IMG/VR virus record: IMGVR_UViG_3300032225_000468
Coordinates: 1 to 28,461 of that record
DNA length: 28,461 bases
Origin: a virus
Lineage: Duplodnaviria > Caudoviricetes
Direction: 5' to 3' (one strand)
A program made the translations under genes and the position numbers. How positions within the stretch are numbered: the first letter of the stretch is position 1; each line of letters begins with the position of its first letter. A model generated the notes under the pieces. That model did not search any database and was not told where the DNA came from. It worked only from the letters and a program-made list of their open reading frames with translations. This document shows positions 17,844-28,461 of the stretch, piece after piece.

Positions 17844-18371
17844 CTAGTACTCGAGGCCGTTATAAGGGTAGGGAAGGTTATTTAGAGATGCCTGAGCGAG
17901 ACAATAGCCACAATCGCAGCCCTGAGTGTGTAGTGCAGGAAGGTAGGGAGCGCCTTCCTGGTAGCCGTTGCCAGTCATTACGAGCATTCCGACTCCGACT
18001 CCCATATGAGGGGCCATGTCGACTGAGAAAGCCTTATTCGGGATAATCGGTGAGAGCATTCCAAGCTCATCTTCGGTCATCCATAGATCAACTGTTCCGA
18101 CGTTCTTAGCAGAGGTGAATGGGCCGGTGGTCTGAGATGAGTAGGTGGCATTGTCCGGGTTACGGAGTACGCGAGTGACCATGCGGCAAGTAACGAAAGT
18201 GATGATTGAGGCAGAAAGTTTGCCTGAATCTACGCGCCCTTGAATAGACGGATATTCGTTGAGGATGACCGCCTCAGCATCCTGGATTAATGCGCGAAGT
18301 AGTTGGTCGTTGTCCGGGACGTTGTCACCGATCCAACGTTCGCGGATGTCTTGAGGGGTTGTCCAGTTCAT
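17844..18371 (-). CDS. Head-to-tail adaptor (Gp19/Gp15/Gp42-like)
   Basis: WTTPQDI..RW...LI.DAE...MV.RVLRNP...T.GPF; start ATG 18371 after GGAG. Confidence 0.85.
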   Translation of the reverse strand: MNWTTPQDIRERWIGDNVPDNDQLLRALIQDAEAVILNEYPSIQGRVDSGKLSASIITFVTCRMVTRVLRNPDNATYSSQTTGPFTSAKNVGTVDLWMTEDELGMLSPIIPNKAFSVDMAPHMGVGVGMLVMTGNGYQEGAPYLPALHTQGCDCGYCLAQASLNNLPYPYNGLEY

Positions 18372-18396
18372 GAGGCTCCGTTCGAGGGTAGTAATG

Positions 18397-18431
18397 CAGA
18401 AAGTGGGGCCGAGCCGAAGCCCGACCCCACT
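18397..18431 (-). terminator. Intrinsic terminator after the major capsid gene
   Basis: GTGGGGTCGGGC-TTCG-GCTCGGCCCCAC-TTTCT. Confidence 0.85.
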
Positions 18432-18450
18432 CTCAAAACTGCGGTACGGA

Positions 18451-19248
18451 CTAGGCCGTAGCGGTGATGTACTGAACAGCCGTGGCCAGCGTGACCTTCG
18501 AGCCGTAGACGTGGAGTCCGCGGACGATGTCGCTGAATGAGCTGATGTCGCGCAGTGCTTCGACCTTGTCGAGCTGCGAAACGTAGGCCGTAGCGGCCTC
18601 GTGGTAGCCAACAGCCTGAGCCTTGGTCTCAGCGAAGAGAGCGGACTCGACGATGGTCATGCCGTAAAGACGACCGATGACACCGTTGCGAAGACCTGAG
18701 TCAATGCCAGCCTGGGCAGCGTCGCTCAAACCTGAGAGCAAGAGGTCAGCCATAGCCGAGTTAACGACGCAGTAGCGACCGTTAGCAGGGACCTTAGCGG
18801 CGCTCATTGCGGTGCGGAGCTTACGGATAGCAGCCTTAGCCTGGTCGCCCGTTGTGATTGCGGTCGTACCGTTGGAAGTTCCACCTGAGATCATCTGAGC
18901 GATGACGTACTTTTCGGAATCTTCGGCGAGAGCCTTACCGGCGGCAACAGTCCACTGGTCGAAGGTGCCAGCAGCCTGAACACGGTCAACGTCATCGACC
19001 TTGAAAGCGAAAGCCTTCTTCTGGTTGATGAGCAGCTGGACAGTCGAGTCGCTCAACGCTTCAGCGGAGAGTGAACCTGCATAGGTCGAGATGGTCGGGG
19101 TAACAGCACCGGTCACATTGACGGTGTTGCCATCGCGAGCTTCGCCCGAGTAGGTCGTGGTGAGGGTTGGGATAACTACCTGGTTCTGGAAGAAAGCGGT
19201 GTTAACGCCAGCAGACCAGATTGCAGGAATGAAGTTGGAGATTGCCAT
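18451..19248 (-). CDS. Major capsid protein (265 aa, P22-coat-like HK97 fold, no delta domain)
   Basis: FIPAIWS...G.TV...L.I.Q.K.FAF.VDDVD...NG.IG.L.G...D.VRGLHVYG.KV; terminator downstream. Confidence 0.92.
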   Translation of the reverse strand: MAISNFIPAIWSAGVNTAFFQNQVVIPTLTTTYSGEARDGNTVNVTGAVTPTISTYAGSLSAEALSDSTVQLLINQKKAFAFKVDDVDRVQAAGTFDQWTVAAGKALAEDSEKYVIAQMISGGTSNGTTAITTGDQAKAAIRKLRTAMSAAKVPANGRYCVVNSAMADLLLSGLSDAAQAGIDSGLRNGVIGRLYGMTIVESALFAETKAQAVGYHEAATAYVSQLDKVEALRDISSFSDIVRGLHVYGSKVTLATAVQYITATA

Positions 19249-19277
19249 TTGGAATCTGCCTTTCTTTGGTTAGGGAT

Positions 19278-19673
19278 TTAAGACTTACCTAGAAGGGAGT
19301 CGAGTCGCCCTGCGGCCTTCGCTGCCATGATCTCGGTGGGAGTCATAGTCTCCAGATCGTTCCGCGAAAGTTGTCCTGGGACAACTGCGAGTAATGATTC
19401 GGGGATTATCCACATCTTACACACGGCTTCGGGTTCAATCAAACCTGTGACGATTTGACAGCCATTCCCGAGCTCATCGTAGAAGATGCAGTTCGAGCAC
19501 ATAAGACCCTCAGCCTTGAATGGATTGAGTGCAGCGGCCGCATAATGCGCACCATCGGCGTAGGGAGACTTATCGAACTTGTCATATTTAAGGACGATTT
19601 CGTTAAGGTCCTCAGCCAACTCTTGCTGGCGCTCATTTAGGAGGTCCCATTCTTCGGGCATTGGCATTGTCAT
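19278..19673 (-). CDS. HiPIP-like four-Cys protein carrying a copy of the scaffold C-terminal peptide
   Basis: Y44...C59-x2-C62-IFY...C72-QIVTGLIEP-EAV-C85-KMW; C-terminus MTPTEIMAAKAAGRLDSLLGK. Confidence 0.7.
   Translation of the reverse strand: MTMPMPEEWDLLNERQQELAEDLNEIVLKYDKFDKSPYADGAHYAAAALNPFKAEGLMCSNCIFYDELGNGCQIVTGLIEPEAVCKMWIIPESLLAVVPGQLSRNDLETMTPTEIMAAKAAGRLDSLLGKS
19284..19346 (-). repeat. Diverged duplicate of the scaffold 3' end (partner at 19689-19751)
   Basis: 17 of 21 aa identical, with many third-position differences. Confidence 0.9.
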
Positions 19674-19685
19674 TATGTACCTTTG

Positions 19686-20228
19686 TTATTTGCCCAGCAG
19701 TTGGTCGAGGCGGCCATCAGCCTTAGCCTTCATGATCTCCTGGGGAGTCATGCGATCTAGTTGAGCAACGTCGGTGATAGCACCGGCGGTCTGGCTTGCA
19801 GCCTTGCCCTGACTTACATCGGGAAGTGGAGTTTTTGGAGCGTTGGCCGTGGCAATAAGTGCGAGAATCACATCCGCTTCGGCCTCGAGTTCCTCTTGAG
19901 TCGATCCGCGTAAGAGTTTGGTGGCATCGCCAGTAATCCCCTTTGCGCTTGCAATCTGCAAACGTAGGAGCTCAGCACGGGCAGATTCTGCTTCGGCCTT
20001 AGTGGCGGCCAGTTCCTCAGCGAGTCGCTCTTGAATTGGCTTTTGGGCGGCCTCAAACTCACGCCAACGGGCGGCGGCATCGGCATCAGCCTTAGCCAAC
20101 TTCTCCCATTTGCGAGCGTTTTTCTTCCATGAATCCAGTGAATCCTCTACGACCTGCGTCGCTTCGGTTTCTACGGTCTCAATCGTTTCCTCGACTAATG
20201 CAGTCTCGGTAGTTGTCTCTTCACTCAT
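19686..20228 (-). CDS. Capsid scaffolding protein
   Basis: Acidic N-terminus, WK..ARKWE, coiled coil, L.G.T.EEL...A, P..SQG. Confidence 0.9.
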   Translation of the reverse strand: MSEETTTETALVEETIETVETEATQVVEDSLDSWKKNARKWEKLAKADADAAARWREFEAAQKPIQERLAEELAATKAEAESARAELLRLQIASAKGITGDATKLLRGSTQEELEAEADVILALIATANAPKTPLPDVSQGKAASQTAGAITDVAQLDRMTPQEIMKAKADGRLDQLLGK

Positions 20229-20233
20229 AATGC

Positions 20234-20263
20234 TCCTCTGCAGGATTGGCGACCATGCGGTCG
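20234..20263 (-). promoter_or_regulatory. Paired GCAN-loop mini-hairpins in the scaffold leader
   Basis: CGACC-GCAT-GGTCG and TCCT-GCAG-AGGA (the second overlaps the RBS). Confidence 0.5.
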
Positions 20264-20269
20264 GTTTAG

Positions 20270-20986
20270 TTAGGCGCGTCCGGTGTTGGCTCTCATTTTG
20301 GCAAGAACTTCCTTAGCCGTACCACCCTGGGCATCATCATACTCCTGGGCGAAATCGGCGTAGTAGTCCGGCACAATTGGAGCCTCACCCTCAAAGACGA
20401 CCTCGGTGGTGCAGTGGCAGTTAGCATGAAAGTCTGGTTCGTAGGTGTAGGTCCGAGTTCCGATTAGGTTTCCGTCAGCTGCGCTAGTCGTCGAGAACGC
20501 CATAAGAGCGCAGAATGCGCAGGCTCCAGGCTCCGCTACTCGTTGGACCGTTTTAGAGACTGAGTCCTGGCCAGCGTTAAAGTCCATCGTCTGGCGATTG
20601 TATTGAGCAACGTAAAGGGTCATGGCATTAGAGAGGATGTCGGGGATGGTGTCGAACCCTTGATCCATGAAGGTCGCCATCCCGTAGTTCACTACCGCAT
20701 CGGTCTTGGCACCGAGGTCGAATATCGGGAGTGTTGCCTTATAGACCTTGGTCGAGTTGGCAAAGAGTTCTCGAGTGGTGTCGTAATAGTCGGCGGCCGT
20801 GACGGCGTTGATGTTCCCATAGCGCCCGATTATGCCTGGAACGACCTGACGGAGAAAGCCGCCTAGTTCGTTCTGATCCAGGTTGGCTCCCTTGCTTAGC
20901 ACCGGTACGGCCTCGCGCTTCATCAGCGTTGAGACCTGGAGCATGGTGTTCCGGTTCTTTAGTGCGAGCGCGTTACGCGTTGGCAT
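20270..20986 (-). CDS. MuF-like head morphogenesis protein
   Basis: RVAEPGACAFCALMA...FHANCHC; between portal and scaffold. Confidence 0.8.
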   Translation of the reverse strand: MPTRNALALKNRNTMLQVSTLMKREAVPVLSKGANLDQNELGGFLRQVVPGIIGRYGNINAVTAADYYDTTRELFANSTKVYKATLPIFDLGAKTDAVVNYGMATFMDQGFDTIPDILSNAMTLYVAQYNRQTMDFNAGQDSVSKTVQRVAEPGACAFCALMAFSTTSAADGNLIGTRTYTYEPDFHANCHCTTEVVFEGEAPIVPDYYADFAQEYDDAQGGTAKEVLAKMRANTGRA

Positions 20987-22338
20987 TATGGAGCAGGAGT
21001 GGGATTAGCCGCCTGGGCAAGTTGAGCCACTAGATCGGTGGCACCGTTCCGCGCCTTGTCTCGTTGGAGTTGAGCCTTTTCCGCGTCACTGAAGTTGAGT
21101 CGGTTATAGGTGACTTCCGAATCAGGTAGCAGGACTCCGGCAGCGATGAGTTTCACAGCTGCGTCAGTCGAGGCCGCCACGGTAGGAGTCGAGGCATCGC
21201 GCCAGATTGGGCGCACGTCGTTGACCTCTTCGGGAATTACACCGTCACGGATCAAGAGTGAGAGTTTAGCTACTTCTGACCAGGTGCGCCCGAACTGCTT
21301 TTGACGGCGCTCAGCCTTTTTCACCAGTCGGTTCTCGAGCGCACGGATTGCGTCGGCGCTTGCCGGGTTATCCGTTTGGAGTCCGAGGTAGGACGTGGGG
21401 ATAGAGGTTTCCGCGGCGAGAATCTGAGCGTAGGCGCGGAGTTGGTTAAAGTACGGCTCCGGCGAGTTGGCCGAAAACTGACCTACCTGGGGCATTACGC
21501 CATCGTCATCGTTGTACCCGATACCTAGGACGCGGCCCTGAATCACGGACCAGCCTTCGGTGGGGTTTCCGTCAGCGTCCACAAAGGCATCCTCTGAGGC
21601 TCCGAGAATATAACGCTGGGGGGCTGAATAGAACTCTCGAGCGACTTCTGCACCTACGAGGGTTCGCATCGCGGAATCAGTGACGGACATCACGGCCCTG
21701 GTTATCTCAGAACGGCCCCAGGGGTCGCCAGAGCGTGGATTATTGATGAGGGGGGCGCAGGGTACTCGACCCAACATATGGTCGTCACGGCCGATTTCTA
21801 GCCAACCATCACGCGTATTGCCGAAGGTGATAGTTACATCCTTCAGGTACAGGGAACCGCCATTGACGTTGCCCTTCTCATCGAAGGTGGCGAGCAGAGC
21901 TGCGAGGGGTCGACGCGTTCTCATGTCATAGATCGCCGTGGCTCGCTTAGGGGATTCGATGGTGATGAGTGGGTCGGGCTCACCTTCCATGCCCTTACCG
22001 ACAAAGACGAAGCCAGAGCCGTAGATGAGCGCGTCTTTGTGACCTTGTGAGGATTCGAGGTCCAGTTCGTTAGCGCGGTAGACCACATCGAGTCCGAGGT
22101 TCGCACCGCCAATCCAGCCCTCAAAGTCCAGGCGCTCCTCGAGTACGTCGACAGCCGTACCGCACCAGCCCACTACTGAGTTCAGTAGACGTAGTGACGG
22201 TGGGACCGAGATGCGCAGATCCTTCAGACGTTGCTTGCCTTCGTAGTAGCACTCACGGATCGAGTTCTGAAACTGATGGTTGATGAGCTTCTGACTGAGC
22301 GCGTCAATGATGTTGGATTCTTCGAGGCTGAGACTCAT
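20986..22338 (-). CDS. Portal protein (SPP1 gp6-like)
   Basis: YYEG.Q...W...AVD...ERL...G.SEI...EFYSAPQR...NPASADAI. Confidence 0.95.
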   Translation of the reverse strand: MSLSLEESNIIDALSQKLINHQFQNSIRECYYEGKQRLKDLRISVPPSLRLLNSVVGWCGTAVDVLEERLDFEGWIGGANLGLDVVYRANELDLESSQGHKDALIYGSGFVFVGKGMEGEPDPLITIESPKRATAIYDMRTRRPLAALLATFDEKGNVNGGSLYLKDVTITFGNTRDGWLEIGRDDHMLGRVPCAPLINNPRSGDPWGRSEITRAVMSVTDSAMRTLVGAEVAREFYSAPQRYILGASEDAFVDADGNPTEGWSVIQGRVLGIGYNDDDGVMPQVGQFSANSPEPYFNQLRAYAQILAAETSIPTSYLGLQTDNPASADAIRALENRLVKKAERRQKQFGRTWSEVAKLSLLIRDGVIPEEVNDVRPIWRDASTPTVAASTDAAVKLIAAGVLLPDSEVTYNRLNFSDAEKAQLQRDKARNGATDLVAQLAQAANPTPAP

Positions 22339-23852
22339 AGGATTAGCGCCTTCCTAGACGTAGTGGACTTTTGGCGCTCTTTTGTTGCCTGGCGAGCACC
22401 ATTCGCCAGTACCGCGCAGGCGAGCAAGTCGATTTTGCGCGGAGAGTTCTTCTTTTCCTTCCTAAAACTACCAGCCTCTGTCGCCACAGCGTTGAGAACA
22501 TGGCGAGTTAGTCGGGCATCGCCATCATGGCCAATCTCGCCAGACACTAAATCGGCTAAAAACTGCTGAGCCATTGGGGCCACGCGATGATTCGTTGGGG
22601 GGATTCGCTCGACGCGGCGCTTGTAAGTCTTGGACCAGTCAAGGACGTTGGCTTCGTAGAACGATGGATCACACCACAGCATCTTCACGTCGTATTGCTC
22701 AAAGAGTTTCTTAATCGAGGCTTCGACTTCGTGCTGGTCGACCGTCCATTCTGGGTCCTGACTATCGGGCTCCCAGACTTGATGGACTCCGAGCGTCCCC
22801 GTGACCACGTCCTGGATAACGATGCCCGTAGCGTCGCCAGAGATCGAACCGTCGAAACCGGCCGTAACCTGAGCACCCTTGGCAATCCCTTCCGGGCGTT
22901 GAGATAGTCCCCAGTAGTGGGGCGAGATGAAGTCCTCACCGGCTAGGCGCACCCACTTATTTAGGCGATAACGCTGAAACGCTGAAAATCCCGTGGCACC
23001 GGCCTCTGCGATGGCGGCCTCGAAGTCGCCTTGATCCATGAGCCCTTCGGCGAGGTTGGGGTTTGCAGCTCTCCAGGTGACGGGGTCGGTCGGGTCTGCA
23101 TCATCTTGAGCTTCCCACCACCAGAACCCGAACTGAGGGTCCTCGATCTCTCCGTTCGACACGCGTCGGCCATATTCGTAGAGTCTTCCTAGCAGGGTGT
23201 CGGTGTGACCTCCGGCCGTGGTAATGGCTACGACCAGCGATTCGGGGCGGTCGCCGGAGCCCTGGGTAAGTGCTTCCCACAGCTCATCGCCACGTTGGTT
23301 CGACATCGACGACGGCCACGCGTGCAGTTCATCGGCCACGACTAGCGATGGGGCTAGACCATGAGCCCTCATGGCGTCAGCGGACAGTGCCCGGTAGATC
23401 GACCCTTTCGAGGGCAGTTCGAGCACGTCTTTATAAACCTTGATAATGCGCGATAGGGCAGGATTGTCCAGGACTTGTTGACGAGCCTCACCGAAGACGA
23501 TACGAGCCTGGGCGCGGTCACTCGCTGCAGAGTAGACCTGACCACCTGGAGCGCCATAGACCAGGTGCTCGAGCGCAATGGCGGTTCCCAGTAGAGACTT
23601 GCCATTCTTACGGGGTAGGCCGATTACAGCTCTGCGGTAGCGCATTAGGCCGGTGGCCGGGTTGACCTCAAAGAGTCGATCCATGAGCCACGATTGCCAC
23701 GCGGTGAAGTCCACCGGTTCCCCGACCTTGAACCCTCGGGATGCCTTTAGGAGCGTCGAGGCGAAGTCCGTGACATTTGGTCCCCTCGTTAGATCGGTGA
23801 GTGAGGGGACGGAGTAGGCCGGAGCCCAGAGTTCATCAGCCGCCGGTAGCAC
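22335..23852 (-). CDS. terL: Terminase large subunit
   Basis: Walker A PRKNGKS, Walker B VVADELH, ITTAG, ANP, GFDGS...D, KID. Confidence 0.97.
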   Translation of the reverse strand: MLPAADELWAPAYSVPSLTDLTRGPNVTDFASTLLKASRGFKVGEPVDFTAWQSWLMDRLFEVNPATGLMRYRRAVIGLPRKNGKSLLGTAIALEHLVYGAPGGQVYSAASDRAQARIVFGEARQQVLDNPALSRIIKVYKDVLELPSKGSIYRALSADAMRAHGLAPSLVVADELHAWPSSMSNQRGDELWEALTQGSGDRPESLVVAITTAGGHTDTLLGRLYEYGRRVSNGEIEDPQFGFWWWEAQDDADPTDPVTWRAANPNLAEGLMDQGDFEAAIAEAGATGFSAFQRYRLNKWVRLAGEDFISPHYWGLSQRPEGIAKGAQVTAGFDGSISGDATGIVIQDVVTGTLGVHQVWEPDSQDPEWTVDQHEVEASIKKLFEQYDVKMLWCDPSFYEANVLDWSKTYKRRVERIPPTNHRVAPMAQQFLADLVSGEIGHDGDARLTRHVLNAVATEAGSFRKEKKNSPRKIDLLACAVLANGARQATKERQKSTTSRKALIL

Positions 23853-25543: not shown

Positions 25544-26026
25544 CTAAAGACTAGGGCAGGATAGGACAATGGCCGGTGGCTTAACGTTTGGGGTAAAGGT
25601 TGCAGCTGCTTCGATAGCGTCGATGACCCCGTTGATGTCCGAATGGTTGACGTAGAGCGCACCGAGAGCGACTTCACAGCCAGACCCGATAGCGGCGTAG
25701 TTGGCAGAATGTTGAAAGCCTGACCCTTCCTCGATCTCGTAAATCTTGGATCCCTGGATAACTAGAAAACCAGCGCCCTTGTAGACAGCCTTAGCAGACT
25801 CCTCCTCAACGCGAAGCGCCAGGTCGTCATAGTTGGTCAGGGCCTCCAGGTACTTAAACATGGCTCGACCGGACTTAATGCTTCCGGCATATCCCACTAG
25901 GCCATTGCCAAAGTCTTGGACCTTGGGATTAAACATCAGGACGGTTACTCGCTCATCACTTGCAGCACTATCGGCACCCATAAATCCGACACCCTGGGGA
26001 GTAATTAGGGCGGCGATACAGGTCAC
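25544..26026 (-). CDS. Ntn-hydrolase, HslV/proteasome-beta-like threonine protease
   Basis: M-T-C-I N-terminus, GADS, K, GYAG, AIGSG..ALGAL. Confidence 0.82.
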   Translation of the reverse strand: MTCIAALITPQGVGFMGADSAASDERVTVLMFNPKVQDFGNGLVGYAGSIKSGRAMFKYLEALTNYDDLALRVEEESAKAVYKGAGFLVIQGSKIYEIEEGSGFQHSANYAAIGSGCEVALGALYVNHSDINGVIDAIEAAATFTPNVKPPAIVLSCPSL

Positions 26027-26322
26027 GGGTAGAAGTTAGTCGACTTCGCCACAGCGGTAGCAGGGCTCCCAGGCTGATGTCCTAACCGCGAGGCAGGTTC
26101 CGCAAGTGACAGGTCTGCCCTCCATGCGCGCAGATTCCGCGAGTAGACCACCAAGAAAGCCATGGAGGCTACTGCGAATCCGTACTGATGAGTCTGCAGG
26201 CCGAACACTATCCACAGGACTGAGGCCAGAATCATCACGATCCAGCCTTGCCAGCGTTTGCGCCCAACGAAGTACGCGCCGATAAGTCCTAATCCCTCGA
26301 GCGTCCATGACCATAACTCCAC
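26023..26322 (-). CDS. Three-TM PnuC-like membrane protein
   Basis: WSW.L...G....GRK.W.GW...LW......QYGF......Y.RN...W. Confidence 0.65.
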   Translation of the reverse strand: MELWSWTLEGLGLIGAYFVGRKRWQGWIVMILASVLWIVFGLQTHQYGFAVASMAFLVVYSRNLRAWRADLSLAEPASRLGHQPGSPATAVAKSTNFYP

Positions 26323-27919: not shown

Positions 27920-28285
27920 CTACCAGCCTCTGCATTGTCCATCCTGATCTGGGACGAAGTTTGGTACTCCGGCTCGGGCCTGTATTGCCTTGGCTATTAG
28001 GACTTGCTCTTCGGGCGCGGCTTCGTTGGCGTAGCGGCCATATTTGCCACCCCCATATTCGAGCCATACATCGTTACGAAATCCGATACCACCTGAGTAC
28101 CGTGATCCATGCATTTTCCAGTTCCCACCGGTCTCGCAGATTGCGACTCGGTTCCATTGCTTCATCACCTCGGGACTTACCAGGGGTATTGGCTTAGGAG
28201 CCGCAGCTCGAGCACTCGGGGAGTGGACTGGAGTTGGAATCAGTAAAGCGGTTAAAACGATTAGCAGGATGGCGGTGCGCTTCAT
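27920..28285 (-). CDS. rpf: Secreted resuscitation-promoting factor (Rpf)-like transglycosylase
   Basis: Signal peptide MKRTAILLIVLTALLI; WNRVAICETGGNW...YSGG.GF...W..YGG...A..A.PEEQ..IA. Confidence 0.85.
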   Translation of the reverse strand: MKRTAILLIVLTALLIPTPVHSPSARAAAPKPIPLVSPEVMKQWNRVAICETGGNWKMHGSRYSGGIGFRNDVWLEYGGGKYGRYANEAAPEEQVLIAKAIQARAGVPNFVPDQDGQCRGW

Positions 28286-28461
28286 GCGTCCTCTTTCACT
28301 TGCCACACAACGGCGCTACGGCCTGACGCGGTTTTCTCACGTCGACCGGAGTCCACGACTAGCCCGCGATCTACGAGCTCGACGCGGCGAGGGCGGCAGG
28401 TGTTCGGCGACATGGTCAGCCGTTCACTTAGTGCCTCGTCCGTGGATGGATGTCTCCGTAG
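28282..28461 (-). CDS. 3' part of the junction-spanning winged-helix gene
   Basis: Same frame as 1-240; its stop overlaps the rpf start (ATGA). Confidence 0.8.
   Translation of the reverse strand, partial: LRRHPSTDEALSERLTMSPNTCRPRRVELVDRGLVVDSGRREKTASGRSAVVWQVKEDA
28339..28461. repeat. Terminal direct repeat, copy 2
   Basis: Identical to 1-123. Confidence 0.97.

Follow-up and report, generated by a model that had tools for sequence, protein, structure and literature searches.

The entry of accessory proteins into the heads of tailed phages is known for few phages. In HK97, the C-terminus of the protease gp4 is said, from work by Duda, Oh and Hendrix in 2013, to be an encapsidation signal. 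The capsid targeting sequence of T4 and the N-terminal signal of P1 DarB are short terminal peptides that are enough to carry accessory proteins into the head, according to the accessible part of PMC9024508. The P22 scaffold has a C-terminal helix-turn-helix (residues 268-303), and its truncated form 238-303 loads fused cargo (PMC9962691, available text). In SaPI1, the protein CpmB carries a scaffold-like C-terminal peptide and binds the same site on the 80alpha capsid as the scaffold does (PMC5644958, available text). Effectors fused to MuF, portal or head protease have been proposed to be packaged into heads in the accessible parts of PMC5512222 and PMC9503650, and a 2026 paper, whose accessible part has no match to HiPIP or iron-sulfur, raises as a speculation the co-assembly of cargo-related proteins within procapsids (PMC13669383). 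The principle of peptide loading is already precedented; what the present case contributes is a single domain traced across several tag systems.

The window analysed here is a complete virus record; it measures 28,461 bases and carries direct terminal repeats. Its WhiB and transglycosylase-like genes and its siphovirus tail module point to an actinophage-like siphovirus with an actinobacterial host, and close relatives were found in two runs of other studies, both labelled freshwater metagenomes. The WhiB gene lies at 2265-2627, the transglycosylase-like gene at 27920-28306 and a weak NMN-transporter-like membrane gene at 26023-26322. The gene of interest, ORF X, belongs to the head operon of the phage itself, alongside terminase, portal, major capsid protein (MCP) and tail genes. 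The head genes are all on the minus strand, in the order large terminase, portal, VG15-family protein, scaffold, ORF X and MCP, with the following features:

22335-23852, minus strand: large terminase; upstream context, with portal and large terminase together spanning 20986..23852 (PF05133, PF03354, PF20441)
20986-22338, minus strand: portal; upstream context (Pfam, see PF05133, PF03354, PF20441)
20270..20986, minus strand: VG15-family head protein (PF25310, E 1e-23; phrog_193, E 5e-15), labelled head maturation protease by PHROGs; upstream context
19686-20228, minus strand: head scaffolding protein, 180 aa (phrog_1793, 9857 and 2592, E 6e-15 to 9e-15; PF14265 weak)
19689..19790, minus strand: scaffold C-terminal peptide (profile match, E 3e-20), its motif kept in 37 distinct scaffold tails
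19278-19673, minus strand: ORF X, 131 aa, with N-terminal helix, HiPIP-fold core, linker and scaffold-type tail
19398..19652, minus strand: ORF X core, residues 8-92, with Y44, C59, C62, C72, C85 and W88 in HiPIP-type ligand spacing
19281..19373, minus strand: ORF X scaffold-type tail, residues 101-131, the candidate capsid address tag; the 17/21 match covers 19284-19346
18451-19248, minus strand: MCP, 265 aa (phrog_267, E 2e-53; PF25209, E 5e-11), the presumed binding partner

ORF X starts 12 bases past the scaffold stop and ends 29 bases short of the MCP start; no sigma-70-type promoter was found in 18300-21000. The original prediction described an extra gene between scaffold and MCP with a C-terminus like that of the scaffold, and this is confirmed. 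The last 21 residues of ORF X before its final Ser are identical to the last 21 of the scaffold at 17 positions, and residues 99-130 match the C-terminal end of scaffold family phrog_2592 (E 8.5e-4). These residues are the only part of ORF X that matches a scaffold family, homology to the scaffold body being absent along the protein, and by sequence ORF X would not class as a paralogue of the scaffolding protein, for which the likeness should run full length. Among the 21 tail codons, 9 are identical to those of the scaffold, 8 are synonymous and 4 non-synonymous (44/63 bases matching), which agrees with the earlier remark that the two DNAs differ at silent sites. The 8 synonymous differences led us to reject a fresh duplication of the tail. 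In the 28,461-base record the tail motif has exactly two copies, one in the scaffold and one in ORF X. Mis-assembly was excluded because independent contigs from two other studies hold MCP, ORF X and scaffold tail together, each in a single contig (run X4 record 12, 18900-20147; run X2 record 3, 18900-19907). The scaffold peptide itself is predicted to be a short helical hairpin and, by analogy with P22 and 80alpha, presumably binds the coat protein.

The likeness to CpmB and 80alpha lies in a second small protein that ends in a copy of the scaffold C-terminal peptide. However, CpmB serves a satellite as a weapon for shrinking capsids, with a helical dimer as its N-domain (PMC5644958, available text), whereas ORF X is the phage's own gene, with a HiPIP-fold core and an unrelated motif. 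Like CpmB it has a scaffold-homologous C-terminus, though without the satellite encoding, and judging from sequence it would work like a scaffold-tail mimic rather than a CpmB. The T4 and P1 signals are N-terminal and, in the accessible part of PMC9024508, are not described as copies of scaffold ends, while the tag of ORF X is C-terminal and scaffold-borrowed; one signal on several cargo proteins of a phage would be expected of a system of that kind, but in the window genome only the scaffold and ORF X carry the motif. Fusion loading in P22 is engineered, that of ORF X would be natural, and no sequence likeness between the two was seen.

We then considered how the tail has been maintained. It is retained full-length in 23 of 83 homologues (ORF X counted), at 54-82% identity to ORF X. 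The uncorrected pN/pS was 0.32 for the tail, 0.23 for the core and 0.68 for the linker, as computed from 8 genes in 28 non-independent pairs with pS near saturation; in distant pairs, the tail had a pS of 0.60-0.90 and a pN of 0.20-0.30. Conservation by column in 21 distinct ORF X tails follows that in the 37 distinct scaffold tails (Spearman 0.66, p 3e-4), and the consensus residue is equal at 18/25 columns. Among the invariant positions of the ORF X tail are M110, A118, G122 and L124. The tail thus appears to be an old, selected part of the protein, conserved at the protein level.

The tail does not follow the scaffold of its own phage. The diagonal score was 496 against a permutation mean of 523 (p=0.96, 7 lineages), and the own scaffold ranked only 4th-17th of 35-36 scaffolds as a match to each ORF X tail, and the expected co-variation of tail and scaffold accordingly failed. 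A scaffold from another phage (P0083) matches the ORF X tail at 21/25 residues and the window's own scaffold at 17/25. What had been read as a copy of this scaffold's peptide is a scaffold motif indeed, though one that is family-wide rather than specific to the own phage's scaffold. Since the tails fail to track their own scaffold and a foreign scaffold matches better, the data fit a motif common to the family that was captured once, long ago, and has been under selection since, and not repeated local copying.

Among close relatives, the tail showed less synonymous change than the core (1/29 against 26/87, p 0.002; 5/27 against 29/65, p 0.02; 10/28 against 34/65, p 0.18), and because of this, DNA-level constraint, recombination or an overlapping MCP expression signal may add to the conservation of the tail. 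The low synonymous change would also be expected if the tail were an insertion scar or a DNA or RNA cis-element, left when a HiPIP gene recombined into the 3' end of the scaffold gene and kept ahead of the MCP start; two decayed copies described below (L184 and L185), which retain mainly the 3' tail DNA by the MCP start, could be read in the same way. This explanation is quite unlikely, however, considering the excess of pS over pN in distant pairs, the retention of the tail in a locus where the ORF X homologue lies upstream of the scaffold (L110), and the recurrence of unrelated tags on the same domain in other phages. Nor did the tail look like an RNA element, as none of the Rfam matches fell below E 0.8 and its folding was unremarkable (z -1.07 to 0.20). 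Between the window and three relatives (L001, L003, L004), the tail DNA and MCP leader (19246-19373) are near-identical while synonymous sites in the core differ by 30-52%, a pattern that suggests either a patch of recombination or an expression signal that overlaps the region.

The core of ORF X was assigned from several searches. The Pfam HIPIP model (PF01355) scored 14.5 bits on ORF X against the curated cut-off of 22 (E 0.045), which it does not reach. When homologue profiles were compared with solved structures, HiPIPs took the top 4 of 5 rows in one search and the top 3 of 10 in another (best E 0.0014), and the core cysteines aligned to those of 1hpi and 3h31. The core model built from an alignment of 118 cores had a pLDDT of 95.6; an earlier model from a shallower full-length alignment (pLDDT 58.5) was left out of the fold search. 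HiPIPs were the top 11 of the 15 rows listed by Foldseek against the PDB, none reaching E 0.001, and the top 7 of the 12 listed by VIA (Z 4.7-6.3; best 3h31, Z 6.3, rmsd 3.6, 58 aligned). Because the sequence and fold searches agree, though individual scores are modest, we regard the core as a HiPIP-fold domain and ORF X as a predicted iron-sulfur protein. The HiPIP-like character put forward earlier is thus backed by the profile and fold searches, although the PF01355 score stays under its threshold. Cys59 and Cys62 are present in 118/118 aligned cores, Cys72, Cys85 and Tyr44 in 117/118 each and Trp88 in 96/118; strong conservation outside the Cys motif is seen in the N-terminal helix and in G41-Y44. 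At E 0.001 the core homologues form 763 clusters at 50% identity.

HiPIPs hold a [4Fe-4S] cluster with a high-potential 3+/2+ couple and serve in periplasmic electron transfer, and Tat export to the periplasm is one of their features. A simple search found no twin-arginine (Tat) pattern in the first 40 residues of 143 distinct ORFs. With the family (PF01355; 3h31, 1hpi, 1isu and PioC 6xyv), ORF X has in common the pattern Tyr, CxxC, C, C, Trp and, by prediction, the fold, but it differs in scoring under the Pfam cut-off, in its extra N-terminal helix, in having no export signal and in its phage head context. It has a predicted HiPIP fold, yet neither the Pfam score nor the export feature of the family.

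The sole match to this core in annotated phage genomes was the metagenome-assembled DSL-LC01, and a scan of prokaryote genomes gave 4 matching short contigs. In DSL-LC01 (L238; OQ999401, 63051-68722), the MCP is preceded by a gene of the head region that carries the HiPIP annotation and by three genes labelled as capsid maturation protease, and the second of these three ends in the HiPIP-fold core. Database entries already label some phage genes HiPIP. The word iron-sulfur was not found in the main text of the DSL-LC01 paper as available (PMC10611076) or in the accessible main text of PMC5512222 and PMC9503650, the last of which also has no HiPIP in it; copied scaffold tags were not seen in either of these two. 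We found no description of a phage HiPIP as head cargo in the open-access literature, subscription papers being mostly outside this coverage. The original prediction knew of no described example; for the principle, SaPI1 CpmB and the T4 and P1 targeting sequences are precedents.

The most informative comparison came from a survey of the C-termini of complete core ORFs, 143 distinct ones in all, taken from the window and L001-L183. Eight of the 143 end in the scaffold tail; all 8 have such a scaffold in the locus, and none has an HK97-type protease match. Twenty short-tailed copies adjoin an HK97-type protease, and 0 of these have a scaffold of the window's type. The core lies inside a protease ORF in 9/143 and at the start of an ORF of roughly 600 aa in 6/143; in one of these six (L135), core, Peptidase_S78 protease and capsid were confirmed to share one ORF. 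A [WF]xGxF C-terminal motif is found in 15/143 and a further tail class (class E) in 3/143, with three more of that class among 19 that were unassigned; 63/143 have no C-terminal tail.

In the protease-adjoining group, the HiPIP-fold gene lies directly beside an HK97-type prohead protease and has a basic-hydrophobic C-terminus like that of the protease (L028-L030, L044, L111-L115, L122, L126, L128, L133, L017-L023). On a matrix built from 25 protease C-termini, with 653 other C-termini as background, 16 of the 18 distinct tails scored above the 95th percentile and 11 above the 99th, these being related and not independent sequences; 14/18 had a shuffle p<0.05. This is the counterpart of HK97, in that these relatives of ORF X end in a peptide like the C-terminus of the neighbouring protease, and it suggests reuse of a protease tail by another gene; the window, unlike HK97, has a separate scaffold and no HK97-type protease match. 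In one genome (G001), [WF]xGxF ends only 2 of 166 ORFs, the HiPIP-domain protein and a Peptidase_S78 protein adjoining the portal gene, the former being encoded about 53 kb from the head genes. There it forms a third motif common to the HiPIP-domain protein and the protease-scaffold. G001 alone yielded such a scaffold counterpart of WxGxF; in fragments G002 and G005 only the HiPIP protein carried the motif, and in G003 it is found on the HiPIP protein and on a 66-aa DUF2188-like ORF.

Altogether, one domain appears to reach head-assembly proteins through at least three unrelated peptides and also through fusion. Following it across unrelated head systems, with the terminal peptide changing to match, amounts to a natural swap experiment, and this tag swapping is in our view the best evidence that the tail is a capsid address tag. 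It also offers a way to predict virion cargo from genomes, and the tail of ORF X is a short candidate loading tag for actinophage capsids. A tree of the core (61 hand-picked rows, 91 columns) placed the scaffold-tail, WxGxF, class-E and most protease-tail copies in one supported group of 49 rows, with a resolution too weak to count the origins of the tags.

Other ends of the protein were also seen. The class-E tail (L039, L040, L057, L127, L130, L137) is a conserved helical tail of 35-40 residues on copies whose neighbours are small genes and which are remote from the head module, and no counterpart of it was found in the near-complete G006 and G007 (shuffle p 0.33 and 0.19). Most tail-less copies belong to large phages, where two divergent HiPIP-fold genes lie in tandem (L051, L060, L063, L065-L067, L072-L077, L082-L097, L163, L168, L169, L183), with a shared and conserved YWL[SA]E-type N-terminal peptide, which in the second gene is followed by an acidic linker. 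In each of three genomes of roughly 200 kb, the exact YWL[SA]E pattern was found in the two HiPIP-domain genes only, so that no protein of another kind was seen to share it as a tag; the peptide is possibly an N-terminal targeting signal. A small Cys/His module with a weak DUF2188 match stands alone with a WxGxF-type tail in G003 (L248, 9974-10174) and is fused to proteases and the HiPIP core at the N-termini of the L112, L122, L126 and L005 ORFs; it is likely another head passenger.

Fusion to head proteins was evaluated among the long homologues (at least 225 residues, among the best 150). A head-and-packaging PHROG was matched by 55/92 in a hand count, a few of these matches being weak or confined to a small N-terminal module; 23/92 matched other or unknown families only and 14/92 none. 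The core thus resembles the mobile domains of the MuF, portal and protease effectors, which ride into heads by fusion. ORF X could be loaded by its tail but serve as an ejected effector, acting early on a redox- or Fe-S-dependent regulator or on a defence protein of the host. The fusion partners include Nudix, polynucleotide-kinase/HAD and minor-head/ATPase families, fusion entries are named ParB, HAD, helicase or Zeta-toxin domain, and such domains have been proposed to be packaged in heads and injected (PMC5512222 and PMC9503650, accessible parts). The conserved N-terminal helix and G41-Y44, being outside the Cys motif, suggest a partner surface. On the other hand, no catalytic motif or host target was identified in ORF X, and a compact cluster-bound fold would need to pass through the siphovirus tail. 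We hold the ejected effector to be a possible but doubtful role.

The gene is not a constant part of the head module. ORF X is absent from 44 of 50 scaffold-family loci, and two close relatives (L184, 3547-3700; L185, 3547-3698), whose scaffold is 88-89% identical, keep a 155-base remnant with frameshifting deletions between scaffold and MCP, of which mainly the 3' tail DNA beside the MCP start is left. Since most loci lack the gene and these two keep only a frameshifted remnant, ORF X is dispensable. The remnant form and intact ORF X occur together in runs X2 and X4. Other cargo domains with the same tag, for which the original prediction advised a search, did not turn up: no second cargo with a scaffold-type tail was found in the window genome or within 3 kb in the 50 scaffold-family loci. 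A protein search with the tail only was insensitive, as it returned five ORF X homologues and no scaffolds.

These patterns bear on whether ORF X is a CpmB-like modulator of assembly, one that would tune nucleation, capsid size or scaffold release by competing with the scaffold, perhaps with redox sensing, and leave with the scaffold. In CpmB a small folded domain bears the scaffold-like tail by which capsid size is redirected (PMC5644958, available text), and ORF X adjoins both scaffold and MCP. Yet the same core is found within proteases, within protease-capsid polyproteins and far from head genes, where competition with a scaffold is implausible, and close relatives without ORF X have a similar scaffold and MCP. 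Modulation of this kind is unlikely.

We next turned to the coat protein. Co-folding of MCP with the 36-residue tail gave weak support for the pairing that the original prediction had asked to see (0.36, against 0.00 for the best of 3 controls), with at least 97% of contacts in agreement between runs and a partner pLDDT of at least 76. The mark used was reached by 116/157 solved and 2/215 mismatched pairs, and 18 of the solved pairs and both mismatches fell at 0.60 or under. The tail alignment mixed ORF X and scaffold tails, and the score therefore describes the motif family; likeness to solved scaffold-coat complexes may contribute to it. The weakness of this support is what would be expected if the tail bound instead the portal, a scaffold oligomer or the VG15 protein, with few ORF X copies at the portal vertex, and the P22 scaffold is reported to contact the portal too. 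The solved precedents, however, place the terminal peptide on the coat protein, and such another partner is very unlikely.

Taken together, we give a probability of roughly 0.65 to tail-mediated loading of ORF X into the procapsid, whatever its later role. Conservation of the tail, tag swapping, head fusions and the weak co-folding signal argue for the cargo-tag reading first advanced from the window; the missing co-variation with the own scaffold, the lack of a second cargo, the decay of the gene in close relatives, the 63 cores with no C-terminal tail and the class-E tail without a counterpart argue against it. On the cargo-tag reading, ORF X would be a late accessory protein that joins a HiPIP-fold domain to a conserved scaffold-type C-terminal peptide. 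It would be translated with scaffold and MCP from one late message, and its four cysteines would bind a [4Fe-4S] cluster in the cytoplasm, consistent with the missing Tat motif. The tail would dock at the scaffold site of MCP, competing with the scaffold for some inner-surface sites during assembly, and the folded core would remain in the head on scaffold exit. Such retention is plausible by analogy, because scaffold-fused cargo of P22 stayed inside for size reasons (PMC9962691, available text), though a protein as small as ORF X may escape. Should the cluster be real and stay in place, a redox protein would be carried inside a phage head.

As to its job there, we tentatively favour a one-electron redox buffer, which might protect DNA, whether packaged or just injected, as well as head proteins against oxidation. 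This role is slightly favoured because of the HiPIP fold and because ferritin-like (Dps-type) or thioredoxin genes adjoin the HiPIP domain in three hand-picked loci of larger phages (L005, 2459-3793; L050, 2125-2607; L148, 692-1135); none of either kind was found among the window's 41 scanned ORFs. The ejected effector is close behind in likelihood, while the modulator, the scar or cis-element and the other binding partner are less likely. A broader and more speculative proposal, which we consider rather doubtful, is that the heads of lake phages are redox compartments, in which a mobile [4Fe-4S] module captures the local terminal peptide (scaffold tail, protease tail or WxGxF tail, or direct fusion to a protease or capsid protein), stays in the virion and acts as a sacrificial donor that shields DNA. 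If true, tailed phages would possess a natural encapsulin-like cargo code that is readable from sequence.

Two minor observations concern the surroundings of ORF X. The decayed copies in L184 and L185 contain a 7-pair hairpin with a 4-base loop that differs between the two, which may point to a novel RNA element there. Finally, the head-tail adaptor of the window (17844-18437) is extended at its C-terminus by a stretch that holds a Cys/His cluster, HTQGCDCGYC, which is a possible metal site, and a similar stretch is found in L001.
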